This document shows, in pieces, positions 8,742 through 50,077 of a stretch of DNA of 64,000 bases. The stretch's first letter is position 1; each line of letters begins with the position of its first letter. A model generated the notes under the pieces. It was not told where the DNA came from. It did not search any database and was given only the letters and a program-made list of their open reading frames with translations. The stretch covers positions 1-64,000 of the IMG/VR virus record IMGVR_UViG_3300015214_000028; one strand, given 5' to 3'. This DNA comes from a virus. Taxonomy: Duplodnaviria; Heunggongvirae; Uroviricota; Caudoviricetes. The position numbers and the translations under genes were made by a program.

Positions 8742-9217
8742 AAATTGCAATTTTCGATCTGGACGAAACCGTTATTAATTCGTCGCATCGCACGCCGAAT
8801 AATCCCGATGGCACCCTTAACCTTGATGCTTACATTGCAAGGCATACACCGGAAAACGTGAGGAAAGACAAGGTTTTGCCGCTTGCCGAAACTATGCGCA
8901 GACTGTATAATATGGGCTGGCAGATTTTTGTTCTGACTGCTAGGGATATGAAACCTTGCGACTATGAATACCTCGCAAGGCATAATCTACCTTATCATCG
9001 CATTTTCTCGCGCGATCAAGCAAAGCCTGAACATTATAGGCTTTCCGATGGCGAATATAAAAAGCGCTGGATTCAAAAGCTGCTAAATCTTCGCCAATAC
9101 CGGAGCGCTTATGTTATAATGTTTGACGATAGCAGCAAGGTTAAATCTGCGCTGCGTCGATTCTTTCCGGTACTTTGCGCGCATAAGGTAAATGCGAAAA
9201 TCGGAACGGTTAAATAG
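8738..9217 (+). CDS. HAD-superfamily phosphatase (5'-deoxynucleotidase or PNK-phosphatase-like; resembles T5 dmp)
   Basis: N-terminal FDLDETV (DxDxT motif); 159 aa. Confidence 0.6.
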   Translation: MKIAIFDLDETVINSSHRTPNNPDGTLNLDAYIARHTPENVRKDKVLPLAETMRRLYNMGWQIFVLTARDMKPCDYEYLARHNLPYHRIFSRDQAKPEHYRLSDGEYKKRWIQKLLNLRQYRSAYVIMFDDSSKVKSALRRFFPVLCAHKVNAKIGTVK

Positions 9218-24671: not shown

Positions 24672-25183
24672 AAACATTCCTTGTAGCAGACACGCACTTT
24701 GGTCACCAAGGTGTTTGTAGGTTTCTTAGAGAGGACGGCTCCAAGCTTCGTCCATGGGATAACTATGCAGATATGGATCGGGAGCTTGTTGCTAGATGGA
24801 ACGCTAAAGTAGGGCCTAAAGATAAGGTATATCACCTGGGCGATGTTCTTATAAACCGTAGGGCTTTTGGTGTTTTGAATGAGCTTAATGGTGATAAGGT
24901 ACTAATACGTGGTAACCATGACATCTTTAAAGACGCCGAGTATACTCCATTCTTTAGGTCTATACGTGGGTCTCATGTGTTAAATAACATGTTGTTAACT
25001 CATATACCTGTTCACCCAGACAGTATGGGCAGGTTTACAGTTAATCTTCATGGGCACTTGCACTATCGTAGTGTTATGCTAGGAGACACGCCCGACCCTA
25101 GGTACCTATGTCTATCAGTGGAGCATACTGATTATGCTCCAATAGATTTTAACGAAGTACTTTCTAGAGTAGCTCAGCGGTAG
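24668..25183 (+). CDS. calcineurin-like metallophosphoesterase
   Basis: Motifs ADTHFGHQG, GDVLINR, IRGNHD, GHLHYR. The 3' end overlaps tRNA-Asn. Confidence 0.6.
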   Translation: MKTFLVADTHFGHQGVCRFLREDGSKLRPWDNYADMDRELVARWNAKVGPKDKVYHLGDVLINRRAFGVLNELNGDKVLIRGNHDIFKDAEYTPFFRSIRGSHVLNNMLLTHIPVHPDSMGRFTVNLHGHLHYRSVMLGDTPDPRYLCLSVEHTDYAPIDFNEVLSRVAQR

Positions 25184-25237
25184 AGCAGTTGGCTGTTACC
25201 CAATTGGTCCTAGGTTCGATACCTAGCTCTAGAGCCA
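25163..25237 (+). tRNA. tRNA-Asn(GTT)
   Basis: Acceptor TCTAGAG/CTCTAGA; D arm AGCTCAGCGGTAGAGCA; anticodon loop CTGTTAC; T loop TTCGATA; encoded CCA. Confidence 0.75.
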
Positions 25238-25312
25238 GGGGGATTAGTGATAATGGGAGCACAGGGGTTTTGCATACCTTTAGTGGGAGTTCAATTCTCC
25301 CATCCTCCACCA
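25238..25312 (+). tRNA. tRNA-Ala(TGC)
   Basis: G3:U70 alanine identity pair; anticodon loop TTTGCAT; T arm GGGAG-TTCAATT-CTCCC; encoded CCA. Confidence 0.65.
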
Positions 25313-25320
25313 AGTTTTAA

Positions 25321-25395
25321 GCACGATTCGTCTATCGGTTAGGACTCAAGGTTTTCATCCTTGCAAGAGGGGTTCGACTCCCCTATCGTGTGCCA
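25321..25395 (+). tRNA. tRNA-Glu(TTC)
   Basis: Anticodon stem CAAGG/CCTTG with loop TTTTCAT; T arm AGGGG-TTCGACT-CCCCT; encoded CCA. Confidence 0.7.
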
Positions 25396-25459
25396 ATTTT
25401 AGTTTTAGGATAGATACAGCAAATTTTACTTATATGGAAGTAACCAAAACTATCCTGTC

Positions 25460-25488
25460 TTGATTTTGTTTGATTAGTGCTGTATAAT
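25460..25488 (+). promoter_or_regulatory. sigma70 promoter TTGATT-N17-TATAAT ahead of the tRNA-Gly/Ile pair
   Basis: Read directly. Confidence 0.6.
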
Positions 25489-25500
25489 GTTTATATCGGA

Positions 25501-25569
25501 TGGGGAATCGCCAAGATGGTTAAGGCATTGGGTTTTGATCCCGACAGTCGAATCCTTCTTCCCTTGCCA
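25501..25569 (+). ncRNA. tRNA-like leader or degenerate tRNA (acceptor, D arm and a TTG anticodon arm recognisable, no T arm)
   Basis: GCC-aagatggttaa-GGC D arm and TTGGG-ttttgat-CCCGA anticodon-like arm ending in TTGCCA, but the 3' part has no foldable T stem. Confidence 0.3.
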
Positions 25570-25578
25570 AAATATTTT

Positions 25579-25654
25579 GCGGATATAGCTCAATTGGTAG
25601 AGCTTCTGCCTTCCAAGCAGACTGTTGTCGGTTCGAGTCCGACTATCCGCTCCA
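25579..25654 (+). tRNA. tRNA-Gly(TCC)
   Basis: GCGGATA/TATCCGC acceptor; loop CTTCCAA; T arm GTCGG-TTCGAGT-CCGAC; encoded CCA. Confidence 0.8.
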
Positions 25655-25661
25655 ACTTTAC

Positions 25662-25736
25662 TCCCGATTAGCTCAGAGGTAGAGCAGTGTTTTGATAAAG
25701 CACTGGTCGATGGTTCGAGTCCATCATCGGGTACCA
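25662..25736 (+). tRNA. tRNA-Ile(GAT)
   Basis: D arm GCTCAGAGGTAGAGC; loop TTGATAA; T arm GATGG-TTCGAGT-CCATC; encoded CCA. The 1:72 pair is T:T. Confidence 0.7.
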
Positions 25737-26075
25737 AATTTAGAGTATACTACCCCAACGGATGGAAAGGAACTACACCTCCCCTTCTTAGTAGGGAAAA
25801 CTCTAAATCTTCTGGGGTCTTGGCCAGACTTTAGAATAATCGACTGTGCGATGAGAGGCTTTAATCTCTCGGGGTACGGCAGTACAGGAACCGTAACCTG
25901 CTATAATAATGATTCCTTTCACTTTTAGGAGCTTATTACTAAGTCTCCTTTTTCAAGATAACTAGACGGACTGTGCTGCCCATAGCGGCACGTGTTAACA
26001 AGTTCGGTGGCGTCTGGCAACCTGCAAAAACTGTATATGCCAGTATACAGGAATGTATCTAGTTGTCTTGAAAAA

Positions 26076-26167
26076 GGAGAGATCCCATAATCGGTATTGG
26101 AGCGGATTGCTAATCCGTCGGCCTGCTAAAAACAGACTTGTGGGTTCGAGTCCCACTCTCTCCACCA
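26076..26167 (+). tRNA. tRNA-Ser(GCT), type II with a long variable arm
   Basis: GGAGAGA/TCTCTCC acceptor; loop TTGCTAA; T arm GTGGG-TTCGAGT-CCCAC; encoded CCA. Confidence 0.7.
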
Positions 26168-26172
26168 TAATT

Positions 26173-37417: not shown

Positions 37418-37446
37418 TTGAATTTTTCTAGTTAGTCTAGTATAAT
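37418..37446 (+). promoter_or_regulatory. sigma70 promoter TTGAAT-N17-TATAAT
   Basis: Read directly. Confidence 0.6.
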
Positions 37447-37468: not shown

Positions 37469-37828
37469 ATGGCATGGGACGACGATAAAAAAGCTAAAGC
37501 AGTTGAACTCTACGAACAAGCAGGGCCTACCCCTGAGAATTCGATGGAAATTGTTAAAGAAGTAGCCGAGGAGCTTGGCGAAACTGTTAACGGTGTTCGT
37601 ATGATTCTTTCTAAGGCGGGGGTCTACGTTAAAGTAGAAGGTGGTGCTAAAAAGAGCAGCACTAAACCTGCTTCAGATAAAGCACCTCGGGTATCTAAGG
37701 CTGATTCACTTCAGGCTCTTACTGATGTTATCGAATCTTCAGGCGTGGAACCTGATCTAGAAATTATCGGTAAACTTACTGGTAAACAGGCTGTTTACTT
37801 TACTGAGCTTCTTAAAAAGTTTGTCTAA
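37469..37828 (+). CDS. HTH-motif family protein
   Basis: ETVNGVRMILSKAGVYVK matches the xRSVIAKLTREGVYIK family motif. Confidence 0.45.
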   Translation: MAWDDDKKAKAVELYEQAGPTPENSMEIVKEVAEELGETVNGVRMILSKAGVYVKVEGGAKKSSTKPASDKAPRVSKADSLQALTDVIESSGVEPDLEIIGKLTGKQAVYFTELLKKFV

Positions 37829-37838
37829 TTAATAGGGT

Positions 37839-38438
37839 GTGAATATGCCTCGCAAAGGTGCTAGTGAAAAACTAACGGACACTAATCTTCAAAAAGTCAC
37901 TGAACTATTGGGGGCAAAATCACCTATTACTAAAAAGCAAGCCTGTGAAATTCTAGGTATCGCCTATAATACTAGCCGGCTTGCTACACTTCTTGAATCA
38001 TATAAAGAACGTAAAGAACGCACTGCTCGTAAAAAGGCAGAGAAACGCTACACTCCTCCAACTGAAGATGAAATTCGAACTATTGTTCGAGATTATTTGA
38101 TTGACGGAGATAGCGTTAGCGTAATTGCTGAAAGAATTTATCGTTCTAGCGATTTTGTTAATCGAATTCTGGAACGCGTAGGAGTTCCCAAACGTACCCC
38201 AGGATTTAACTATTTTAATCCTGAACTGATTCCTGACGCAGCAGTTCGTGAAACTTTTTCCGCTAATGAGCGTGCTTGGTCTGCTAGGTATAACACTACC
38301 GTTAAGGTAATCAATGAGCGTGAAAATCAAAAAGGTGTGTATCTAGTATGGGTTGAAGGCGAAGCCGGACAATTTTACGCTTTTCAGCCCTTTGAAGAGC
38401 TTGGTTCCCTAGAACATCTAAAACAATACGGAATTTAA
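37839..38438 (+). CDS. putative DNA-binding protein (HTH; 199 aa)
   Basis: ITKKQACEILGIAYNTSRLATLLESY. Confidence 0.4.
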   Translation: MNMPRKGASEKLTDTNLQKVTELLGAKSPITKKQACEILGIAYNTSRLATLLESYKERKERTARKKAEKRYTPPTEDEIRTIVRDYLIDGDSVSVIAERIYRSSDFVNRILERVGVPKRTPGFNYFNPELIPDAAVRETFSANERAWSARYNTTVKVINERENQKGVYLVWVEGEAGQFYAFQPFEELGSLEHLKQYGI

Positions 38439-38441
38439 ATA

Positions 38442-38732
38442 ATGGAATTCAATTCCTTTAAAGCAAAAATGAACGAAGCAGGTGATGCTCTAGTCAACTA
38501 TATTTCGCCTGTTTCCGGTAAACAAAAATATCATGTTTGTACTCTAGACCTTAAGAATTGCAAGTATATTAAGGATAAACTAGATCAGCGTAAGTTTTCT
38601 GAACCTCAGCAAGGTTGGGTACGTGCTTTCTGTTGGGATCTAGATGACTTCAAAAATATTGATGTTGCTAGTGTAACATCCGTGGTGCCACTTAATAAGA
38701 TGGTATCTAATGCTGTAGACTCTTATGTATGA
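38442..38732 (+). CDS. hypothetical protein (96 aa)
   Basis: Track ORF. Confidence 0.4.
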   Translation: MEFNSFKAKMNEAGDALVNYISPVSGKQKYHVCTLDLKNCKYIKDKLDQRKFSEPQQGWVRAFCWDLDDFKNIDVASVTSVVPLNKMVSNAVDSYV

Positions 38733-39021
38733 GTGGTTCATTAGCGAAAATGAACGCGGAGAGCGGCTTTACCTAACTATTGACTCTTTTCGAGACGTAG
38801 AGTACGTACATTTTCGCAAATACTTTCAAGATTTTGAGGGTGAGTACAAACCCACGAAAGAGGGGATTTCATTCCCTCTTTCTATAGTAGCAACTCTACG
38901 TCTCTTTCTAGCACTGTCAGAAATTGTATCTGAAGCTGAAAAAGAGTTGCTATCCGACTCTCTAAAAGAAATTTTAAATGACGCTAAAACATATCGAAGG
39001 TCTACTGAAGTCAGCGAGTGA
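38725..39021 (+). CDS. hypothetical protein (98 aa)
   Basis: Track ORF. Confidence 0.4.
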   Translation: MYEWFISENERGERLYLTIDSFRDVEYVHFRKYFQDFEGEYKPTKEGISFPLSIVATLRLFLALSEIVSEAEKELLSDSLKEILNDAKTYRRSTEVSE

Positions 39022-39943
39022 GGCTTATTACGCTGGAGATCCGTTTCTAACGGATGAACAATTCGACGCTCTAGCAGCTTCAGTAAACTTTAGTGATGTT
39101 GGTAGTTCCGTTAAAGGTCTTAAGGCTAAACATACATATCGTATGTACAGTCTTAAAAAATACTATCCCGGGGAAGGTAAGCCTCCCCTTACTGAGTACA
39201 CTAAAGCTAAGATTACAACTCCTAAGCTTGATGGTGCCGCAATTTCCCTTCTATATAAAGAAGGAAAATTTGTACAAGCTCTCACGAGGGGCGACGGCTT
39301 TGAGGGGCAAGTTATTACTGCCAAACTTGCCTGCTCAACTCTCATTCCTCTGGAAATCTCTTATAAAAAAGAAATTCAGATTACGGGAGAAATTGTAGCC
39401 CCTAAAGATATTGCTAATGCTAGAAATTACGCTGCAGGTGCACTAGGGCTCAACAGTATTGAAGAATTTCTATGCCGAGACCTATATTTTGTAGCCTATG
39501 GTGCTAACATGGTGGATAAGCCAAATTTCTACAGAGATACATTGGCTTGGCTAGAAAGTCTTGGGTTTAAAACAGTTGCTGATTCTGATTTGTGCGACAA
39601 ATTTCCACAAGACGGAGTTGTTACTCGGATTGATTCCGAAAAGGATTTCAATGAATATGGGTTTACTAGTAAGCACCCTAGTGGAGCTTTTGCTACAAAG
39701 TCTAGAAATGCTGAGGTTCGTAGCATTTTACGAGAAGTTAAATGGCAAACAGGACGTAGTGGTAAAGTAACTCCAGTAGCCTTGTTTGATCCAGTTATTA
39801 TTGATGGTGCAACTATTTCACGAGCTACACTTAATAACCCGGGGTTTATCGAGGCTTTAAATCTAGATCTAGGGGATTTTGTGTATATCGAGCGAGCAGG
39901 CGATATTATTCCCGCTGTTGTTCGTAGTGAAAAACCAACTTGA
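38978..39943 (+). CDS. NAD-dependent DNA ligase, N-terminal subunit (Ia + adenylation + OB domains)
   Basis: YYAGDPFLTDEQFDAL (domain Ia), TPKLDGAAISL (KxDG adenylation lysine), OB-fold region. Ends with a stop; a promoter follows. Confidence 0.7.
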   Translation: MTLKHIEGLLKSASEAYYAGDPFLTDEQFDALAASVNFSDVGSSVKGLKAKHTYRMYSLKKYYPGEGKPPLTEYTKAKITTPKLDGAAISLLYKEGKFVQALTRGDGFEGQVITAKLACSTLIPLEISYKKEIQITGEIVAPKDIANARNYAAGALGLNSIEEFLCRDLYFVAYGANMVDKPNFYRDTLAWLESLGFKTVADSDLCDKFPQDGVVTRIDSEKDFNEYGFTSKHPSGAFATKSRNAEVRSILREVKWQTGRSGKVTPVALFDPVIIDGATISRATLNNPGFIEALNLDLGDFVYIERAGDIIPAVVRSEKPT

Positions 39944-39968
39944 TTTTCTTTACTGACCAAGGTATAAT
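39940..39968 (+). promoter_or_regulatory. sigma70 promoter TTGATT-N17-TATAAT between the two ligase halves
   Basis: Read directly. Confidence 0.6.
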
Positions 39969-39977
39969 ATATTTTCT

Positions 39978-40721
39978 ATGATCGAAATTCCATCAAATTG
40001 TCCGAGCTGCGACGGCCCACTAACAAAAGTAAACATGCAGTTATTTTGCAAAAACAAAGGGTGCCCAGCTCAAACACTGAAAAAAATTCAGCATTTCGCC
40101 AAAGTGATGGGAATTAAAGGTCTAGGAGAAAAAACTCTAGAAAAGCTCGATTTTGAGACTTATCACGATCTTTACTACTTTAGCCCTCAATATTTTACAG
40201 ATACTCTAGGGACAAAAGTAGGTACAAAGATTCTTGCAGAAATTGAAGCGTCTAAGTCTGTTCCTCTAAATCAGGGTATCGCAGCTTTCGGTATTCCTCT
40301 TATTGGTGAAACTGCTGGAAGGAAACTAGCCGAAGTATGTGCTTCTATTGAAGATATTGACTTTGAGACGTGCAAAAAAGCAGGATTAGGAGAAAAAGCT
40401 TCAAATAATCTGTTATGGTGGCTTGAGGAACAAGAATACAACGGCCTACCAATTAACTTTCTTTTTGAGAAACCTACAAAGCCCAGCTCTAATGGCTATG
40501 TAGTTTGTATCACTGGAAAACTAAATGATTATAAAAACAGAAGTGAAGCTAAAGCTTTTCTAGAAACTTTAGGCTGTACAGTAGTAGATAGTATTACCTC
40601 TAACACTAATGTTCTAATCGTAGAAGATGGGAAAACAAGCTCATCTAAATATAAACAAGCGTTAAGTCGCAATATTAAAATCTGCTCTATTAAAGAGCTT
40701 GAATCTGAAATTATTTCATAA
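39978..40721 (+). CDS. NAD-dependent DNA ligase, C-terminal subunit (Cys4 zinc finger + HhH + BRCT)
   Basis: CPSCDGPL...CKNKGC zinc finger, GIKGLGEKT HhH motifs, BRCT-like C-terminus. Confidence 0.7.
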   Translation: MIEIPSNCPSCDGPLTKVNMQLFCKNKGCPAQTLKKIQHFAKVMGIKGLGEKTLEKLDFETYHDLYYFSPQYFTDTLGTKVGTKILAEIEASKSVPLNQGIAAFGIPLIGETAGRKLAEVCASIEDIDFETCKKAGLGEKASNNLLWWLEEQEYNGLPINFLFEKPTKPSSNGYVVCITGKLNDYKNRSEAKAFLETLGCTVVDSITSNTNVLIVEDGKTSSSKYKQALSRNIKICSIKELESEIIS

Positions 40722-40735
40722 GGATAAGAAACACA

Positions 40736-41472
40736 TGACAACCCAAAAATGGACCGAAGATCGCACAGCACAACTTACTAGTCTAGTTGGCGGAGAATCT
40801 CCTGTTACTCCCGGCACTGTTGAGGCCGCTGCAGAGCAACTAGGAACAACTATCCGTTCGATTGCTTCAAAATTACGAAAACTAGGTTACGATGTTGCTA
40901 GCATGGCTAAAGATCGTGCTCCAGCTTTCTCTCAAGAAGAAGGAGAGGCTCTAGCAGAATTTGTTCAGGCTAACAGCGGTCGATTTACCTATACTGAAGT
41001 TGCCGAAAATTTTGCTGGTGGCAAATTCACTGCAAAACAAGTACAGGGTAAGGTTCTTAGTATGGAACTAACCTCGCATATTCGTCCAGCGGATAAAGTA
41101 GAGGTTCCACTCAAGTACACCGAACAAGAAGAAAACCTATTTGTTGATATGGCAAACCAGGGTCAGTATATTGAGGCAATTGCTAAGGCTCTAGGCAAAT
41201 CAATTAACTCAGCCCGGGGTAAGGCGCTTTCGCTACTTCGTGCTGGAAAGATTGACAAGATTCCGGCACAAGAAGTTTCTAACGCTAAGGTAAAGTCTGA
41301 TGCTGTAGCTGAGCTAGGAGATCTTAGCGGTATGACAGTTGCTGAGATCGCAGAGAAAACTGGCAAGACGGAACGTGGTGTTCGTACCCTGCTAACTCGT
41401 CGGGGTATTAAAGTAGCAGACTATGATGGTGCTGCTAAGCGTGAAAAAGCCGACGCAAAACAAGAAGGCTAA
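40736..41472 (+). CDS. protein with three tandem HTH-family repeats
   Basis: TIRSIASKLRKLGYDV, SINSARGKALSLLRAGKI and TERGVRTLLTRRGIKVADY. ATG at 40736 with RBS AAGGATAAG. Confidence 0.5.
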
Positions 41473-41479
41473 TTAAAAT

Positions 41480-41510
41480 ACGGCGGGTATGATTACCCGC
41501 CGTTTTTGTT
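41480..41510 (+). terminator. rho-independent terminator
   Basis: ACGGCGGGTA-tgat-TACCCGCCGT followed by TTTTGTTTG. Confidence 0.7.
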
Positions 41511-43193: not shown

Positions 43194-44050
43194 AGGAACT
43201 TCTAGATAAAAAAGGAATTCCGTATTCCTACCAAGGCAAGGATATTGTAGTTAGGTGTCTAAATCCAGAGCACCCGGACCGAAATCCTTCACTAAGAATC
43301 GATAAAGTAACGGGTCTAGGCCATTGTTTTTCTTGCGGGTTTAAATTAAATCTCTTCAGGTATTTTGCAGAGCCAGCTAATTCTGTAAAAGCTAAAGTTG
43401 CTTTAGTAAAAGAGAAGATTACTACAATTTACAGCGATGTATACGGGCTAGAGGTTCCCAAAGGTGCTCAGCCCTATCCACGAGAGTTCAGAGATATTCC
43501 AGTAGAGGTTCTTAGAAAGTTTGGGGCGTTTAAGCACAAAGATTACCAAGATCGTATTGTATTCCCCCTTCGAGATATTCAGGGCAAAATTCGCGCATTC
43601 GTGGCTCGAACCGAGCCACATTCGCGCGACTTGCCTAGGTATAAAATCTCTCCACCCGGGGCTAGCCTACCCTTATTTCCTGAAAAGCTAAACGAGAAAA
43701 ACTCTACTTTGTTCTTAGTAGAGGGGCCTTTTGATATGCTTAATTTATATGCTAAAGGCATTCATAATGTAGCAGCTATGCTAGGAACGCAAGGGTTAGG
43801 CTCCCTTAAACAGGGGTTAAGAAAAGATAAAGTTCATTTATTAAAACTTCAAGGTGTTAGTCGTCTAGTATTACTTATGGACGGCGACGAGGCGGGTCGT
43901 AAAGCTGCCGAAATATTGGAACCAATGTTGAAAGCTGCCGACTTTGAAGTAATAAGCGTTGACTTAGCTGAGGGAGACGACCCCGGAAGTCTAGATCAAG
44001 ACACAGTTAACCAATTAATTAAATTCTATGACGAAAATTGCAGTAATTGA
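43187..44050 (+). CDS. DnaG-like primase (zinc-binding domain + TOPRIM)
   Basis: CLNPEHPDRNPSLRID...CFSCG zinc ribbon; LVEGPFDMLNLY ... LMDGDEAGRKAA (TOPRIM). Confidence 0.7.
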   Translation: MVEELLDKKGIPYSYQGKDIVVRCLNPEHPDRNPSLRIDKVTGLGHCFSCGFKLNLFRYFAEPANSVKAKVALVKEKITTIYSDVYGLEVPKGAQPYPREFRDIPVEVLRKFGAFKHKDYQDRIVFPLRDIQGKIRAFVARTEPHSRDLPRYKISPPGASLPLFPEKLNEKNSTLFLVEGPFDMLNLYAKGIHNVAAMLGTQGLGSLKQGLRKDKVHLLKLQGVSRLVLLMDGDEAGRKAAEILEPMLKAADFEVISVDLAEGDDPGSLDQDTVNQLIKFYDENCSN

Positions 44051-45560
44051 TAAGTGCCCAAATAACGTAGACTATTCAAAGTACTTTAACTTTGAATTTG
44101 AATATTATCCACTTTCTAGTAAAAAACTAACAAAGGTATTGAAGAAAGATGTTGATATTAATATTGATATTGCTGCCTATGATTATGTTATCCTAGTTGG
44201 CTCCGAAGCAGTAAAGTATTACACTACTCACACCAATGTAACAGACCATCAAGGCACTCTAGTTGATGATAAGTTTATCCCTATGATTACACCTGGGATG
44301 CTGCACTTTAAACCTGAGGCTCGTCCAGCATTCGAACGCTCTCTAGAGTTACTGCATAAAATTGTAGCGGGAGAGCGCATGGAGGTTGTAGGGGACTTTA
44401 AATGGACGGAAGATTATGATACAGCTAGGTCCCTTCTTCTACAGCTTTTGGAAGATGTTAAGGAAACAGGACTGCTAGCGATCGACACTGAAACTACAGC
44501 GCTGTATCCTCGCGATGGGTATGTTCTAGGCGTTTCTCTAGCGGCCAAAGTAGAGAAGGGTATCTATGTACATGCTGATACTCTTGATGATGAAAACTTA
44601 GCTATTATTCAGCAAGCTATTGATATTAGCACAGAAATTTATCATAATGCTAAGTTCGATAGAAAGATGATTAAATACCATCTTGGGCTTAATCTAAAGG
44701 ATAAGTATGAAGATACCATTCTTTTGCATTATCTTCTAGACGAGACTCAAGGAACACATGGCCTTAAGCAACTAGCACTAAAATACACTAAACTAGGTGA
44801 CTATGATAGGGGACTAGACGAATTCAAAAAGTCATACTGTCGCCAGCACAAAATTAAGGAAGAGGATTTCAATTATGGAATGATTCCATTTGAAATCCTG
44901 GGGGAGTATGCTGCTAAAGATGCTGCCGCCACTCTGGAGATTTACCACCTGTTTAGGCCTAAAGTTTCCCAGAATGCAAGGCTAGAAAAGGTATATCAAG
45001 AACTAATTCTACCTGCGTCCTCTGCCCTAGAAAAAGTAGAAGACTTTGGTATTCCCGTATCTAAGGACAGATTAGAGTTTGCTAATAAAACTCTAACTGA
45101 GGCTATTCAGGAGGCTTCCGATGTATTTTACAACTCGGAGGAAGTTAAGCGCTTTGAGGAAATTCAGGAGAAACCTTTCAATCCTAATTCTGTACAACAA
45201 CTTAGGGAATTTCTTTTTACTTATCTAGGATTAAATCCTTTAAATAAAAAGACTAGTACTGGTGCTCAATCAACCGATGCAGAAGTTCTAGAAGATCTAG
45301 AAGACCAACACGAACTAGTTCGTCAAATTATTAAAATTCGTAAACTAGGTAAACTAAAAAATACCTATGTAGATAAGTTACTTTACGAGATTGATAGGGA
45401 CGGCAGAATTCGTACGGGCTTTAATCTTATTAGTACTACTTCAGGTAGGCTATCTAGCTCTGGTAAGTTCAATGCTCAACAAATTCCTAGGGATGACCCA
45501 CGCATTAAAGGTTCAATCGTTGCACCCCCGGGTTACAAAATTGTATCTCAGGATTGGTAA
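44028..45560 (+). CDS. DNA polymerase I (family A), N-terminal fragment: 3'-5' exonuclease domain through the first Asp of motif A
   Basis: Exo motifs (LAIDTETTALY); RKLGKLKNTYVDKL; TSGRLSSSGKFNAQQIPRDDPRIKGSIVAPPGYKIVSQDW aligns to E. coli Pol I ...IRQAFIAPEDYVIVSADY then stops. Confidence 0.8.
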   Translation: MTKIAVIDKCPNNVDYSKYFNFEFEYYPLSSKKLTKVLKKDVDINIDIAAYDYVILVGSEAVKYYTTHTNVTDHQGTLVDDKFIPMITPGMLHFKPEARPAFERSLELLHKIVAGERMEVVGDFKWTEDYDTARSLLLQLLEDVKETGLLAIDTETTALYPRDGYVLGVSLAAKVEKGIYVHADTLDDENLAIIQQAIDISTEIYHNAKFDRKMIKYHLGLNLKDKYEDTILLHYLLDETQGTHGLKQLALKYTKLGDYDRGLDEFKKSYCRQHKIKEEDFNYGMIPFEILGEYAAKDAAATLEIYHLFRPKVSQNARLEKVYQELILPASSALEKVEDFGIPVSKDRLEFANKTLTEAIQEASDVFYNSEEVKRFEEIQEKPFNPNSVQQLREFLFTYLGLNPLNKKTSTGAQSTDAEVLEDLEDQHELVRQIIKIRKLGKLKNTYVDKLLYEIDRDGRIRTGFNLISTTSGRLSSSGKFNAQQIPRDDPRIKGSIVAPPGYKIVSQDW

Positions 45561-46740
45561 CAAGTCCCCTTCAGCAGTAATGTTGAAGTAAACACCCCTC
45601 TAACTGCTGGAATATCATTAGAGCCTTCAAGCTACAACGCAACTGGAAACGGTAATCGTGATAGCCTAAAAATTGAAGGATTTGACAATCAGCAGCCAAG
45701 CCCCGCATTACAAGGGGAAGGTTCAGAGACTATCCGAAAGGAGTAGAGTATGCAAAATAGCAAGCTCGAAATGGGGGGCAGCCTCTTTACGCTAGCCGAA
45801 ATGGCGCGTAAATGGTTTGTAGAGAATAACGTAGAAGTTCCAAAAACTTCAAAAGAATGGGCATCTAGGTCTGTAAACAGGGGGGAAATCCCCCCGGGCA
45901 CAGCTGTGATGACTTTAAGAAACTCGTATGGTATTACTCCTAGAGTATTTTTAAACATACTAAACGGTAAAGACCCTGAAGTCAATAAGTATAAACAAAA
46001 CCAAATTACTCCCGATAATTCTCAAGAACTAATAGGTTTAGAAATTATTGATACTGAGTACAGAAATGACAATGTGCATAAAATTAGTAGAACTAAATGC
46101 TGTCAATGCGGTTTTGAAGAAACTTTAGACAACGGGACTTTTGGTAGAATGCTAGCCAGTAAAAATAAATATTGCAGGATATGCAGAGGTGCTAGTGGAA
46201 AAGAAAAGCCCCTGTTTATTTTTGATAGGTTTGAAGATTTTATTCCTATCAAACAAACTGCAAATAAAAAAATATTATACAGGTGCATTACTTGTGATAA
46301 TAATATTTTACGTGGCACTGGGTATAGTTTACAAGCAGAATACTTAGTTTGTGAGCATTGTAATCCCAAAATTATTAGTGGGGCTAAACTTGAAACACCT
46401 GAGGGTGTTTTTGATTCTAAAATTGAATACTTAGCCTATCTAAAATTAGTAGAAATTTTACCAGACACTTTTAGTATAGAGCGACAAAAATCCTACGATA
46501 GCCTATTCGGCACTAAAACTAAACATACTGCAGATTTTTATTTACCCGAGTTAGATCTAGTTTTAGAAGTCACTACAAACAGTAATAACCTAGGGGCCAA
46601 GTATTCCAAAACAATGTTATGGAAACTAGGCATATCTAGTAAAGTTAAACTAGCCCTGTCAGTTAAAGAGGTTGAAGATATAGTCCGGCCCTTATTGAAA
46701 AATAGGGGGATAACCGTTAACCACAGCAGAAGTTTATGTA
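45558..46740 (+). mobile_element. ~1.18-kb insertion splitting polA inside motif A (intron or free-standing endonuclease insertion; mechanism unresolved)
   Basis: Pol I homology stops at 45557 and resumes at 46741 in a different frame. The insert carries a Cys-rich endonuclease-like ORF. Confidence 0.6.
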
Positions 46741-46784
46741 GCCTCTGTTCTATCAGGAGACAAGAAACTTCAAGAAGTTTTTAA
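45750..46784 (+). CDS. Cys-rich putative homing endonuclease (344 aa; two CxxC...CxxC zinc ribbons) inside the polA insertion
   Basis: CCQCG...CRICRG and CITCDNN...CEHCNP; C-terminal DFYLPELDLVLEVT (possible nuclease core). Same frame as the polA N-fragment; its 3' end overlaps the start of the C-fragment. Confidence 0.45.
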   Translation: MQNSKLEMGGSLFTLAEMARKWFVENNVEVPKTSKEWASRSVNRGEIPPGTAVMTLRNSYGITPRVFLNILNGKDPEVNKYKQNQITPDNSQELIGLEIIDTEYRNDNVHKISRTKCCQCGFEETLDNGTFGRMLASKNKYCRICRGASGKEKPLFIFDRFEDFIPIKQTANKKILYRCITCDNNILRGTGYSLQAEYLVCEHCNPKIISGAKLETPEGVFDSKIEYLAYLKLVEILPDTFSIERQKSYDSLFGTKTKHTADFYLPELDLVLEVTTNSNNLGAKYSKTMLWKLGISSKVKLALSVKEVEDIVRPLLKNRGITVNHSRSLCSLCSIRRQETSRSF

Positions 46785-47496
46785 GAGCGGAGGCGACCTT
46801 CACTCTACAATTGCAAAGATGGTTTTCAACCTTCCTTGCGAGGCAGATCAAGTAAAAAAGCTGTTTCCAATCCAGAGGCAAGCAGCGAAAGCGATTACAT
46901 TCGGAATCCTATACGGTTCAGGGCCGTCTAAAGTAGCAGAGAGTGTAAACAAAGAAGGGGGTAGCATGACTGTCTCCGAAGCGGAAGAAGTTATTCAGCA
47001 ATACTTTGATACATTCAAGCAACTAAAGAAATGGATTACTAGTACAAAAGCTGTTATTGAGCGCGATGGATTTATTTACACAAGCCTAGGAAGAAAAAGA
47101 CGGTTGGAAAATGTATTTTCCTCAGACCGCGGCATTGCCAGCCACGAAGTCCGTTCCGGACTAAATGCTGCGGTCCAGGCTACCGCTAGTGATATCAATT
47201 TGTTAGCGCTTATTAATGCTCAAAAAGAACTAGAAAAACGCAAGCTAGACGCTAATATCTTTATGCTGGTGCATGACTCCATTGTAGCACTAGTAAAAGA
47301 TGAGTGCGTTGAGGAGTACAAGCAAATTCTAAAAACTTGTACTCAACAGGACTACGGATTTAGTATTAGCGGATACCCTATTGGGGTAGATCAGGATGTA
47401 GGGCAGGACTACTCTTTCGGTTCTTTTGACGAGAAATTTGGAGAAGAATATGCTAGATTTATCGAAACTAAAGTGGCCGATTTATCCGCTGCCTGA
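46741..47496 (+). CDS. DNA polymerase I (family A), C-terminal fragment (motifs B and C)
   Basis: [32 protein letters not shown] aligns to [45 protein letters not shown] (motif B) and LVHDS (motif C). The first ATG is at 46819, but homology starts right after the TAG at 46738. Confidence 0.75.
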   Translation, partial: [251 protein letters not shown]

Positions 47497-47956
47497 CTAC
47501 TATCAACTGCAGCAGGACTTAGTAGGGTCATACGTAATTAATTTTAAAAATAATAAATTATATGTAGACCCTACTTCTATAGAGCAGCCCAGCCTTGCTA
47601 GACGAAGGCTGGCGCTCTCTTCTAACCCAGAACAAAAACTATTACGACTAAAAAATCCTTTGAATAGTTATGTTGATATGATTAATTCGCCGCATAAGCG
47701 ATTTATTGATTCTAGTGGTAGAATTATCAGATATCAAAAATCTAGAACAGCTAGACTAGCTTATTATAAAATTTCTTCCTTTGAAGAAACAACAATGGGT
47801 TACGTAATTAATGTCCAAGGACTACATTGTAAGTTTTTTATAAATCGCGCGCCGAAACTTCACGAGAAATATGCCGGAATTCTACACGTGGGTAGAGGCT
47901 TTGTGTTATACAGCTTAGAAGCAGAAAAGCACAAAGATACTTTTAGAAAAATATGA
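47450..47956 (+). CDS. hypothetical protein (168 aa)
   Basis: ATG at 47450 with RBS GGAGAAGA. The track's start at 47426 overlaps the end of polA. Confidence 0.4.
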   Translation: MLDLSKLKWPIYPLPDYYQLQQDLVGSYVINFKNNKLYVDPTSIEQPSLARRRLALSSNPEQKLLRLKNPLNSYVDMINSPHKRFIDSSGRIIRYQKSRTARLAYYKISSFEETTMGYVINVQGLHCKFFINRAPKLHEKYAGILHVGRGFVLYSLEAEKHKDTFRKI

Positions 47957-49668
47957 AAAAAGCAGTAATTAGAAATAGAATTATACTACACACGGATGAT
48001 GAACTAGCTAAGAAAATTATAGATGAACTGACCCATAGGATTCCTCCTAGAAATCATATGGAAACAGTTAAAATTCTAAAATTGTGGAATAGAATCACAC
48101 CTAGTACATATTCAATTCCTTCTGGTCGTATGGACTTAATCCCAGAAGACTATGAAATAATTGATAAACGTGCAGATGTGCCTATCGAGCTTCCAGAGTT
48201 TAAATTTACTTTACGTCCTTCCCAAATGGACGTTTATAACGAAGTTGATTCTAGCTGCATTATTAATGCGGCCCCTTCCTACGGAAAGACTTTTACAGCT
48301 CTAGCTCTGCTCAGCAAACTAAAACAAAAAACTTTAGTAATAACGCATACAACAGCGTTAAGAGATCAGTGGGCGAGGGAGGTTGAGAAAGTTTATGGGT
48401 TTAGTCCTGGAATTATTGGTAGTGGTAGATTTGATATTGTTCCTGACATTGTTATTGCGAACACACAAACTCTAGTTAAAAAGCTTCCTGAGGTTAAGGA
48501 TAAGTTTGGCGCATTAGTGGTGGATGAGTGTTTAGACTACGAAGTAAGCATTGACACCTCTGAAGGACCTATGAAACTGGGGGTTATCGTAAACAATAAA
48601 TTAGCTGTTAAAGTGCGTAGTTTTGATTTAGAAACAGGTAAAGAAGTTTTTAAACCAGTAGTAAACTGGTATAGGAACCCAGAAACAAACTGTTTAAAAA
48701 TAAAAACAAGTATTAGCACCTTAAAGGCCACCAGTAATCATTCTATATATGTAGAAAAAAATGGTGAAATAGTTAAGTTACGGGCAGACGAATTAAAGGT
48801 AGGGGATAATTTGGTTTTGTCGCTTTCTACGCATAACAATATTGAGGTTACCCCAATCAAATCTATTGAACCTAGCACTTTAACTGGCAATCACAGATAT
48901 AATATTGAAGTAGCTGATACGCATACATACTATGCTAATAGTATTCTTGTAGCTAACTGCCATCATTCCCCTTCTTCTACCTTCTCAGAGATAGTTGATA
49001 AGATGGAATCCAAATATAAAATTGGATTGTCTGGCACTATAGTAAGAAAAGACGGACAACATGTTGTTCTTCCAGGCTACTTTAGTAGTAAATTAATTCA
49101 ACCTCCGGCGGAGAACGCAGCTACTCCCGTAATATTTACAGTAGCTTCTAAGATTCCGTTTCCTTCTGGAAGTACTTGGGGAGAGCAGGTTACTAACTTA
49201 GAATGCTATACTCCTGAATACCAGCAGCTAGTAGTAACTCTAGCCGACATGGCGGCAGATGCCGGACATAAAGTGTTAGTTGTAGCCTCTAGGGTTGAAT
49301 TTTTGGAGAAAGCCCCCGGCATGTGTAAGAATAGTGCTATTTCAATTACGGGCTCTGTAAAGGACTTAGAAGAGCGCAACGATCTTCTAGCTTCCTTATC
49401 TAGTAGTAATTCAATTCTTTTTGGAACCATGTCTATTTTTAGCGAAGGCATTTCACAAAACGATCTAAGCTGTTTAATTTTAGCCACCCCTATTAATAAC
49501 GATTCTTTGCTAGAACAATTAATTGGGCGGGTAGTTCGTATTAAAGAAGGAAAGAAGCAGCCAGTAGTTTTTGATATTCATTTGGATGGTGCCATGACTA
49601 AAAGACAAGCAAGCAGTAGAATGGGCTTCTATATGCGAAAAGGCTTTGAAATAAAAAAATTGACTTGA
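47953..49668 (+). CDS. DExH-box (superfamily 2) helicase containing a mini-intein
   Basis: Motif I AAPSYGKTF. Motif II is DE-[intein]-CHH, which becomes DECHH after splicing. Helicase C-terminal motifs (ILFGTMS, QLIGRVVR). Confidence 0.7.
   Translation: MKKAVIRNRIILHTDDELAKKIIDELTHRIPPRNHMETVKILKLWNRITPSTYSIPSGRMDLIPEDYEIIDKRADVPIELPEFKFTLRPSQMDVYNEVDSSCIINAAPSYGKTFTALALLSKLKQKTLVITHTTALRDQWAREVEKVYGFSPGIIGSGRFDIVPDIVIANTQTLVKKLPEVKDKFGALVVDECLDYEVSIDTSEGPMKLGVIVNNKLAVKVRSFDLETGKEVFKPVVNWYRNPETNCLKIKTSISTLKATSNHSIYVEKNGEIVKLRADELKVGDNLVLSLSTHNNIEVTPIKSIEPSTLTGNHRYNIEVADTHTYYANSILVANCHHSPSSTFSEIVDKMESKYKIGLSGTIVRKDGQHVVLPGYFSSKLIQPPAENAATPVIFTVASKIPFPSGSTWGEQVTNLECYTPEYQQLVVTLADMAADAGHKVLVVASRVEFLEKAPGMCKNSAISITGSVKDLEERNDLLASLSSSNSILFGTMSIFSEGISQNDLSCLILATPINNDSLLEQLIGRVVRIKEGKKQPVVFDIHLDGAMTKRQASSRMGFYMRKGFEIKKLT
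48529..48957 (+). mobile_element. mini-intein (143 aa, Hint domain) inserted in helicase motif II
   Basis: Begins CLDYEVSIDT (block A) right after VVDE. TxxH block B (LKATSNHSIY). Ends NIEVADTHTYYANSILVAN followed by CHH (blocks F/G, terminal Asn, +1 Cys). Excision restores DECH. Confidence 0.7.
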
Positions 49669-49699: not shown

Positions 49700-50077
49700 A
49701 TGCTGCATGATGGCGTTATGTTCTTTGATTGGAAGTTACTGTACCAATCAGCTAAGGGCGATAAGAAAAAATTAGTACAAACAGTAAAGAATAAGCTATT
49801 GAAGCCACACTACTATAAAGTGCCTGACGGATATAGTTTTTTAGCTAATCCCGTAATTTTGATGGAGTCTTCCAAAAGAAATACGGTAAACGAGGTATAC
49901 GACTACATTAGGTTGGCAAGTATTCGAAACTTTTTCGATGCAGAATTTAATAGGGATTTAACTCTATCTCTGCTATATGTTCCAAACGATGTAGACGTGA
50001 GAAACAACAGACTATTAATAGTTAAAGAAAACAAAGTATTTTTTAGATACGAAAAAGGACTAAGTACATGGGACTAA
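49700..50077 (+). CDS. hypothetical protein (125 aa)
   Basis: Track ORF. Confidence 0.4.
   Translation: MLHDGVMFFDWKLLYQSAKGDKKKLVQTVKNKLLKPHYYKVPDGYSFLANPVILMESSKRNTVNEVYDYIRLASIRNFFDAEFNRDLTLSLLYVPNDVDVRNNRLLIVKENKVFFRYEKGLSTWD

Follow-up and report, generated by a model that had tools for sequence, protein, structure and literature searches.

Is an NAD-dependent DNA ligase that stops midway and restarts behind a promoter-like motif a true two-gene enzyme, and what would the motif between its halves drive? The question is raised by two adjacent ORFs in a 64,000-nt stretch of viral DNA, the whole of which was analysed here (hereafter, the window). The window belongs to a distantly related T5-like (Demerecviridae-like) phage. 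In a nucleotide BLAST against phages, matches span only 8% of the region, and even the closest relatives in IMG/VR or the JGI metagenomes do not exceed ~56% LigA identity. The T5 synteny is kept, with D3, D2, T5.115, ligA, ligB, D5, D6, primase and polymerase following one another (the features at and around the ligase locus are collected in Table 1). The D5 homologue, in which HTH domains were found, is 45% identical to T5 D5 (E 4e-60) and begins 13 nt past ligB, with an AAGGA Shine-Dalgarno sequence upstream. In the same window, the polymerase gene carries a likely group I intron and a helicase an intein-like insert.

Table 1 Coordinates of the ligase locus and its neighbouring features in the window, with the basis of each assignment.
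Feature	Position	Strand	Basis
Predicted upstream promoter of the same class, TTGAAT-N17-TATAAT, before the D3 homologue	37418..37446	+	Pattern scan, phage consensus
ligA (ORF 1), N-terminal ligase subunit; 321 aa, ATG start, TGA stop at 39941-39943	38978..39943	+	PF01653, PF03120, 9hu3_A, E. coli LigA and T5 LigA alignments
Predicted sigma-70-type early promoter; -35 TTGATT 39940-39945, 17-nt spacer, -10 TATAAT 39963-39968	39940..39968	+	Motif, class enrichment, phage consensus, position conserved upstream of ligB, T5 P-K28a/P-K28b
ligA-ligB gap, 34 nt	39944..39977		
Discriminator ATATT, then TTCT	39969..39977	+	Sequence; ATATT is a T5 early promoter feature (PMC7472727)
ligB (ORF 2), C-terminal ligase subunit; 247 aa, ATG start, frame different from ligA (+1 relative to ORF 1)	39978..40721	+	BRCT, 9hu3_B, E. 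coli 2owo, T5 LigB alignments
T5 D5 homologue, DNA-binding early protein	40735..41472	+	T5 D5 match, HTH domains, Shine-Dalgarno
Strong intrinsic-terminator-like hairpin	41480..41503	+	10-bp stem with 7 GC pairs, then T run

A sequence-only reading had described the locus as an NAD-dependent ligase encoded by two separate genes, and the gene layout, the Pfam domains and the alignment to E. coli LigA all agree with this description. ORF 1 matches DNA_ligase_aden (PF01653, 4.7e-26) and DNA_ligase_OB (PF03120, 1.1e-24), while ORF 2 matches BRCT (1.9e-11), with DNA_ligase_ZBD (0.0047) and HHH_2 (0.0025) lying below the cut-off. Across both ORFs, the domain order is Ia, nucleotidyltransferase and OB fold in the first, and Cys4 zinc finger, HhH (shortened in LigB) and BRCT in the second. 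The division that had been read from the letters, with domain Ia, the KxDG adenylation domain and the OB fold in ORF 1 and the remaining domains in ORF 2, is thus recovered by Pfam together with alignment, the zinc-binding and HHH_2 matches being sub-threshold. In domain Ia, residues Y17, Y18, D26, F29 and D30 align with Y22, H23, D32, Y35 and D36 of E. coli LigA, in which the NMN-binding residues of this domain are essential; it is this domain that commits such ligases to NAD+ instead of ATP. The adenylation lysine aligns as K83 (K83-L-D-G), and the motifs K83-LDG, TRGDG, QITGEI, DGVV and AFATK correspond to K115, R136, E173, D285 and K314 of the E. coli enzyme; the position of K290 is occupied by Arg in all T5-type LigA proteins, including that of the window. 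ORF 2 aligns with residues 404-660 of E. coli LigA (2owo), and all four zinc cysteines (C8, C11, C24 and C29) are kept. By domains and motifs, we assign the two ORFs together to the NAD+-dependent DNA ligases of the LigA family.

A stop codon in a gene that is usually single could stem from a mistake in sequencing or assembly, or from a mutation that has recently made the gene a pseudogene, and the stop itself is all that speaks for such an origin. An error at 39943 had been named as one way in which the two-gene reading could fail. The assemblies of two independent read sets (SRR6484323 and SRR8449813) are 100% identical across the junction, the same split is present in all T5-type relatives, and both halves, 40-55% identical to those of relatives, retain the residues needed for catalysis and zinc binding. 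Identical assemblies and a universal split refute an error or a pseudogene, and we give this explanation practically no weight.

Alternatively, the two ORFs could be joined into one product by recoding (readthrough, frameshift or bypass) or by RNA or protein splicing. Phages do use bypassing, for example in T4 gene 60, and the likely intron and the intein-like insert mentioned above lie in the same window. However, readthrough of the ligA TGA meets a TAA eight codons on, and in the +1 frame a TGA (39954-39956) follows the ORF 1 stop, so that no single shift joins the ORFs; with stop codons in both frames, readthrough, frameshift and bypass are ruled out. A junction intron is likewise ruled out, the gap of 34 nt being too small and Rfam returning nothing there, and intein motifs are absent around the junction. 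The relatives point the same way: ligB has its own ATG at a conserved position in every one of them, the gap between the genes ranges from 31 to ~1250 nt, in some cases with whole genes inserted, and the homologous proteins of phage PR1 are deposited as two chains. Joining of the ORFs is, in our judgement, vanishingly improbable, and we treat ligA and ligB as two genes with two products.

To place this split among relatives, we surveyed ~150 loci in all, counting for the split only those in which both halves are present. In alignments, the cut falls in the linker that leads from the OB fold to the zinc finger, at about residues 394-401 of E. coli LigA. The same linker is the split point in every locus counted from IMG/VR and the JGI relatives (78 of 78 loci, and 76 of 76 of the T5-type loci), while a distant unsplit ligase (L163) was recovered with the same method as a contrast. 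In relatives, the halves invariably co-occur, as neighbours and with their order unchanged. Each half finds matches in more than 1000 phage records, and the GenBank phages inspected (five of five) are all split. The suggestion, in the sequence-only reading, that T5 annotates ligase subunits A and B and that the division may run in the lineage is therefore borne out, both by the match to T5 ligA and ligB and by the split in all T5-type relatives. On these gene arrangements, we regard the two-polypeptide ligase as a lineage trait of T5-like phages. The split ligase is real but ordinary for such phages, and it is already known: the paper on the T5 genome put it on record (Wang et al. 2005, cited in PMC1684257).

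Between the two genes, a full consensus promoter had been proposed. The motif, TTGATT-N17-TATAAT, is present, but "full consensus" overstates it, as the -35 hexamer matches TTGACA at four of six positions and the two hexamers together match at 10 of 12. A loose promoter scan of the region from 34 to 46 kb gave no enrichment (22 sites found versus 26.8 expected) and was unable to decide the promoter question; a strict pattern and positional conservation did. The strict pattern TTG-N20-TATAAT is strongly enriched: the window has 16 sites where 1.21 are expected, none of 100 shuffles gave more than five, and the sites track gene orientation. The copy between ligA and ligB fits the phage's own consensus, TTGAYTTT..G-TATAAT-AT. 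Upstream of ligB, TTGNNN-N17-TATAAT is found in 73 of 77 relatives and at all 55 distinct junctions, where the spacer is invariant at 17 nt and TATAAT is perfect. An ATATT discriminator is reported for T5 early promoters (PMC7472727), and the window site, TTGATT-N17-TATAAT-ATATT, matches the features of this class. In T5 itself, two promoters, P-K28b and P-K28a, are annotated between ligA and ligB, in the order ligA, P-K28b, P-K28a, ligB, D5; the T5 transcription paper makes no mention of P28. Judged by its sequence and position, the intergenic motif is a genuine phage early promoter, positionally homologous to T5 P-K28a. The split and the promoter before ligB are kept together across a very wide T5-like range, from enterobacterial isolates to metagenome-derived relatives.

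It had further been suggested that this promoter allows the two halves to be expressed separately. A promoter between the halves is upheld by its conservation, but its role is better sought in opening the next early unit, ligB-D5, than in regulating the ligase halves separately. D5 is probably co-transcribed with ligB from the 39940 promoter, and the hairpin downstream of D5 likely marks the end of the unit. On the other side of the junction, no strong GC-rich terminator was found between the 37418 promoter and ligA, the only candidates being weak plus-strand matches with 3 GC at 38074-38091 and 38862-38877, and a terminator is also absent from the 34 nt examined between ligA and ligB. Because the gap holds no terminator, read-through into ligB from upstream promoters is probable; the 37418 promoter probably supplies the ligA transcript and continues into ligB.

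The geometry of the junction is compressed. The ligA stop codon TGA sits within the -35 hexamer TTGATT, and only 9 nt, lacking a Shine-Dalgarno sequence, separate the end of the -10 hexamer from the ligB ATG. Translation of ligB from read-through transcripts would also have to do without a Shine-Dalgarno sequence, which several other genes of the window lack as well. With the -10 hexamer so close to the ATG, a transcript begun at this promoter would have next to no leader or none, with a predicted start at ~39975-39978; the bases 7-9 nt after the -10 hexamer, which are the usual start positions, are pyrimidines. A textbook leaderless promoter has 6-7 nt from the -10 hexamer to the ATG, and lambda cI transcribed from PRM is an example of a leaderless mRNA. 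In such mRNAs, the position of the -10 hexamer lets transcription begin on the A of the start codon or beside it, and there is no Shine-Dalgarno sequence. The window differs from lambda cI and its like in its spacing of 9 rather than 6-7 nt, and a leader of 1-3 nt is just as likely as none at all.

The same compression can be read against the promoter. The motif could be inactive, or irrelevant for ligB, which would then be expressed only via read-through (e.g., from 37418), leaving the motif as a decaying P28-type remnant or as a promoter for D5 only. The short distance to the ATG without leader or Shine-Dalgarno sequence, the weak -35 hexamer (4/6) and the gap without terminator would all fit, as would the leaders of 22-54 nt with a Shine-Dalgarno sequence that follow most of the window's other promoters of the class. 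However, neither TATAAT nor the 17-nt spacing deviates at all, and the phage consensus is matched, including ATATT. Moreover, about ten divergent relatives (L032, L075, L145-L150, L162) keep a tight geometry of 6-8 nt between the -10 hexamer and the ATG, which argues for selection; in one of them (L150), the gap is 31 nt and the ligA stop lies inside TTGACA. Within the window, the gene at 49700 shows the arrangement TTGACT-N17-TATAAT-N6-ATG. We consider an inactive motif unlikely and retain the genuine promoter. As a tentative extension, about which we are somewhat more doubtful than confident, this phage and its subclade may have drawn the promoter tight on both genes and may express ligB-D5 from a leaderless or near-leaderless mRNA, so that promoter use and leaderless initiation would determine the subunit ratio, in place of translation driven by a Shine-Dalgarno sequence.

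GIY-YIG homing endonucleases have repeatedly settled at the junction, which bears on the origin of phage "genes in pieces". The gene for such an enzyme lies exactly between ligA and ligB in 10 IMG/VR relatives; the 34-nt gap of the window contains no ORF and hence no such gene. Since the split is universal in the clade and the endonuclease sporadic, the endonuclease may have entered a gene whose split was older, a doubt that has been raised in the same form for gene 43 (PMC2988022). A related reading, offered with the same reserve as the leaderless arrangement, is that the universal pairing of split and promoter, along with the sporadic GIY-YIG genes at this spot, marks the split as a scar, since fixed, left by a promoter-carrying mobile element that inserted long ago.

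Taken together, we consider it highly probable that the locus encodes a T5-type two-subunit NAD+-dependent ligase in which a genuine early promoter heads ligB-D5. As a plausible mechanism, LigA (domain Ia, nucleotidyltransferase and OB fold) would take AMP from NAD+ onto K83, and LigB (zinc finger, HhH and BRCT) would serve as the DNA-clamping half; the two would associate non-covalently and seal nicks like the single-chain LigA. On the transcriptional side, ligA would be transcribed from upstream promoters that probably read through into ligB, while the intergenic early promoter would head the short ligB-D5 unit as far as the hairpin; with the intergenic region compressed to 34 nt in this lineage, its own transcript would carry little or no leader.

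A different division of labour is conceivable, in which the halves have diverged in function and LigB acts alone, as a DNA-binding/BRCT scaffold with D5, or as a partner of the host LigA. The placement of the halves in different transcription units, with a strong promoter before ligB-D5 family-wide, makes unequal amounts possible and would suit such a role. However, the halves are always found together, adjacent and ordered, both chains of the PR1 ligase occur in the same PDB entries, and no pointer to a second role was found in the present analysis. Furthermore, the Ia-nucleotidyltransferase-OB fragment of LigN self-adenylates but cannot ligate without the zinc finger, HhH and BRCT domains (PMC1684257). 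We regard divergence of function as quite improbable and favour a ligase made of both subunits.

A true split gene and a true promoter were recognisable from sequence alone, a clean confirmation that carries little weight for discovery, as publication of the T5 genome had already revealed the split and the PDB now offers a two-chain structure. Only the putatively leaderless ligB transcript is mildly new, and it supplies a testable detail, namely a ligB-D5 transcript of this kind in one subclade.

Like the "genes in pieces" that other phages have in association with free-standing homing endonucleases (PMC2988022; PMC3045599), such as Aeh1 nrdA split by mobE, the T4 topoisomerase genes 39/60 with mobA, and 43A/43B of Aeromonas phage 25 with seg, the locus presents an essential replication enzyme as two adjacent genes whose products would reassemble; unlike in those cases, the endonuclease is missing from the window's gap and the ligase halves have no extra interaction domains. 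E. coli LigA (PDB 2OWO) has the same domain order and the same motifs (KxDG, TRGDG, DGVV, the motif V lysine, the Cys4 finger and BRCT), but it is a single chain of 671 aa, whereas T5-type proteins are divided at the OB-zinc finger linker, carry Arg at the K290 position and are shorter, with shorter nucleotidyltransferase loops and a reduced HhH. The structure of the ligase of Providencia phage vB_PreS_PR1/PSTCR5 has been solved and deposited as PDB 9HU3 and 9I5I, with a chain A of 339 aa and a chain B of 248 aa ("DNA ligase subunit B"); our literature search found no paper on these entries or on split-ligase biochemistry. From the presence of both chains in the same entries we infer a LigA-LigB complex in PR1. 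The window proteins match these chains over nearly their full length (LigA to 9hu3_A, E 1.3e-61; LigB to 9hu3_B, E 3.9e-39), although PR1 belongs to another genus (Priunavirus) and its gap, of 192 nt, is annotated with a terminator and a promoter.

T5 itself offers a parallel in organisation. Its LigA and LigB (T5.116/T5.117) share with the window the split point, the gene order and the neighbours (T5.115, ligA, ligB, D5, D6), and the alignment to the T5 ligase genes that had been proposed as a check gives 42% identity for LigA (E 1e-68) and 39% for LigB (E 3e-49). In both phages, LigA ends a few residues past the OB fold and LigB starts with M-K-I-E-I-P..C-P-x-C, directly preceded by a sigma-70 promoter. 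The difference lies in the space between the genes: in T5, the 202-nt gap contains a tandem pair of promoters together with a ~23-nt leader and a Shine-Dalgarno sequence, AAGGAAG, whereas the window accommodates a single promoter in 34 nt and dispenses with the Shine-Dalgarno sequence.

The NAD-dependent DNA ligase of the window is encoded by two genes, ligA (ORF1) and ligB (ORF2), separated by 34 nt. This arrangement, claimed in the sequence-only reading, is confirmed, and its interpretation supported, by the ORF layout, domain matches and alignment to E. coli LigA. LigA matches the NAD-ligase adenylation domain (4.7e-26) and the ligase OB fold (1.1e-24), and LigB a BRCT domain (1.9e-11; all Pfam); matches of LigB to the HhH and ligase zinc-finger models fall under the cut-offs. 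In the alignment, the domain Ia motif of LigA (Y17, Y18, D26, F29, D30) corresponds to E. coli Y22, H23, D32, Y35 and D36, and K83 of K83-LDG to K115; TRGDG, the motif III glutamate, DGVV and the motif V lysine all lie in LigA, and LigB carries the four zinc cysteines (C8, C11, C24, C29), followed by a shortened HhH region and BRCT. The ORF1 product stops near E. coli residue 394 and that of ORF2 begins near residue 401, which places the cut within the linker between OB fold and zinc finger. An unsplit ligase locus recovered by chance (L163) has a linker of ~15 residues at this point, and the aligned junction ends of LigA and LigB hold no extra residues able to serve as an added docking module. 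In the alignment (39224-39850 of the window), all T5-type LigA proteins compared (window, T5, My1 and Providencia phage PR1) have an arginine at the E. coli K290 position, in a DGVV(I/T)K/R motif, and several surface loops of the NTase domain are missing from them. ligA starts 44 nt within the PC4-like ORF that precedes it and lacks a Shine-Dalgarno sequence; an obvious one is missing from several other window genes as well.

Coordinates of the split ligase locus and of other features of the window
Feature	Coordinates	Strand	Remarks
tRNA cluster	25163..33256		15 genes (ARAGORN)
D3, D2 homologues	37469..38438		order D3, D2
T5.115 homologue	38725..39021		PC4-like protein
ORF1 / ligA	38978..39943	+	321 aa; stop TGA 39941-39943
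Predicted promoter	39940..39968	+	-35 TTGATT 39940-39945, N17, -10 TATAAT 39963-39968; motif match
ORF2 / ligB	39978..40721	+	247 aa; ATG start
Hairpin and T run	41480..41503		10-bp stem, 7 GC pairs
Family A DNA polymerase gene	44028..47496		interrupted
Polymerase insert	45555..46716		1162 nt
ORF in polymerase insert	45750..46784		344 aa
D10 helicase homologue	47953..49668		571 aa
T5.125 homologue, promoter site	49665..49702		gene start 49700

A sequencing error at 39943 would offer a trivial explanation of the split. The exact LigA protein is, however, encoded by five contigs in assemblies of public read sets, and two of these contigs, from separate runs (SRR6484323, 3966 nt; SRR8449813, 2184 nt), match the window at 100% identity through the junction, which rules out an artefact. 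Recoding is likewise ruled out: readthrough of the ORF1 TGA meets a TAA after eight codons, and the +1 frame, that of ORF2, contains a TGA at 39954-39956, beyond the ORF1 stop, so that no single frameshift joins the two ORFs. An intron is ruled out by the size of the gap, 34 nt being too small, and the only Rfam matches in the window at the gathering threshold are tRNAs. Rfam also gives a tRNA-like match at 30517-30614 that is absent from the ARAGORN output, which places the tRNA cluster upstream of the ligase.

The family A DNA polymerase gene is interrupted: 44034-45554 corresponds to T5 polymerase residues 2-527 and 46717-47481 to residues 528-813, and the two parts join seamlessly (VSQD/LTTAEVY) within a conserved part of the polymerase domain. 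Two group I intron matches in the insert stay below threshold (39.2 and 35.2 bits, gathering score 50; E 4e-8 and 6e-7), and the ORF of the insert, which has no Pfam match, overlaps the start of exon 2; a group I intron carrying a homing-endonuclease-like ORF is the probable identity of the insert. The D10 helicase homologue is longer than its T5 counterpart (450 aa), and internal matches to PT-HINT (3.7e-11, aa 212-329) and Intein_splicing (1.4e-7) suggest a mini-intein.

The window belongs to a distant T5-like phage. Homologues of T5 D3, D2, T5.115, LigA, LigB, D5, D6 helicase, primase, polymerase, T5.125 and D11 follow one another along it, D2 preceding D3 in T5. Both ligase halves align to those of T5 (LigA 42%, LigB 39%; D5 45%, E 4e-60), and each is matched by more than 1000 phage records in tblastn, with best identities of 46% for LigA (Pectobacterium phage My1) and 48% for LigB (Vibrio phage VspSw_1). 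At the nucleotide level, the Demerecviridae BLAST match of the region is limited to a short OB-fold stretch. The suggestion that the split is a lineage trait holds, and the trait is already known: T5 (NC_005859) is annotated with ligA (65364-66335), 'promoter P-K 28b', 'promoter P-K 28a', ligB (66538-67317) and D5 in this order, and its split ligase has been on record since 2005, as cited in PMC1684257. The ligase is likewise split in My1, VspSw_1, Vibrio phage D310 and PR1, and the same-residue split recurs in 78/78 GenBank and IMG/VR loci holding both halves and in 76/76 T5-type loci of JGI metagenomes, two sets that overlap in part.

In the most likely mechanism, LigA would adenylate itself from NAD+ at K83, LigB would contribute the modules that the steps on DNA require (zinc finger, HhH and BRCT), and the two would associate non-covalently. 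The requirement for the C-terminal half is supported by an experiment on LigN, whose Ia-NTase-OB fold fragment is adenylated like the full-length enzyme and inactive in ligation (PMC1684257). PDB entries 9HU3 and 9I5I pair a 339-aa 'DNA ligase (NAD(+))' with a 248-aa 'DNA ligase subunit B', matched by the window LigA and LigB at 1.3e-61 and 3.9e-39; the chain B sequence (129 aa, taken from the alignment) matches Providencia phages PR1 and PSTCR5 at 100% identity, and a literature search found no publication on the entries. By analogy with these PR1 entries, we infer a LigA-LigB complex in the window phage.

The promoter between the halves had been described as full consensus; the TTGATT-N17-TATAAT motif is present, but the description is overstated, the -35 matching only 4/6 consensus positions. 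The window has 16 TTG-N20-TATAAT sites where 1.21 are expected (maximum 5 in 100 shuffles). They range from 8883 to 49693, follow the orientation of the genes around them and share an extended consensus (TTGAYTTT, T-rich spacer, G-TATAAT-AT.TAT) to which the ligB site conforms. This family is probably the early promoter set of the phage, although the site at 8883, inside an ORF, may be a chance match. Directly 3' of the ligB-site -10 lies ATATT, reported as the discriminator of all known T5 early promoters (PMC7472727). In relatives, TTGNNN-N17-TATAAT stands just 5' of ligB in all 55 distinct junction sequences (GenBank, IMG/VR), each with a 17-nt spacer and a perfect TATAAT, and in 73/77 metagenome loci (two of the four exceptions read TATACT); relatives also have an A-tract 5' of the -35. 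From class enrichment, discriminator and conserved position, we regard the predicted ligB promoter as real.

The D5 homologue begins 13 nt after ligB and is directly followed by a strong, bidirectional terminator-like hairpin with a T run, a spacing and a boundary that make the predicted promoter the head of a ligB-D5 unit. The following ORF has its ATG (41489) inside the hairpin loop. A terminator scan of the 34-nt gap found none, and between the 37418 promoter and ligA there is no strong GC-rich terminator hairpin, only weak 3-GC matches on the + strand (38074-38091, 38862-38877). Probably, ligA is transcribed from upstream promoters and ligB from these and its own. The proposal of separate expression thus stands insofar as the halves belong to different transcription units, but with D5 and the hairpin downstream the promoter stands at the head of an operon and is no ligase-specific device.

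One detail of the locus is unusual: the entire gap is promoter, with the ligA stop TGA inside TTGATT, the -10 ending 9 nt before the ligB ATG, and no Shine-Dalgarno sequence within the 34 nt. A transcript starting 7-10 nt past the -10 would have a leader of 0-3 nt; we infer both this start and the mode of translation. The -10 to ligB distance is 23-30 nt in T5 and most relatives, with a Shine-Dalgarno sequence in the leader of the enterobacterial and Vibrio phages. Compression to 6-8 nt occurs in a subclade of relatives (L032, L075, L145-L150, L162), the 31-nt gap of L150 likewise having the ligA stop within the -35. The T5.125 homologue (TTGACT-N17-TATAAT-ATTAAT-ATG, with 6 nt between -10 and ATG) has exact leaderless geometry; in T5, promoters P31A and P31B lie upstream of T5.125. 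The repeated occurrence of such compression suggests tolerance of, or selection for, leaderless or near-leaderless expression, and the leaderless-type ligB-D5 promoter is the sole point possibly worth an experiment.

One promoter fills the gap in the window, whereas T5 and My1 have two in tandem before ligB. In relatives the gap is an insertion hot spot: ten from IMG/VR (L028, L030, L031, L049, L053, L062, L063, L069, L070, L074) hold ORFs of 227-303 aa with a GIY-YIG catalytic domain (E 8e-7 to 2e-3 in the five tested against Pfam, some also matching a NUMOD-like domain), each 5' of the conserved ligB promoter, and others (e.g., L002, L003, L029) hold small unrelated ORFs, crAss001_48-like and DUF7736 proteins included. 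Since the split occurs throughout and the endonuclease only sporadically, the endonuclease may have invaded an already split ligase gene, a caution also raised for gene 43 (PMC2988022). With a homing-endonuclease-like ORF between the halves, these junctions resemble the phage 'genes in pieces' with free-standing homing endonucleases, Aeh1 nrdA/mobE, T4 39/60 mobA and phage 25 gene 43/seg (PMC2988022).
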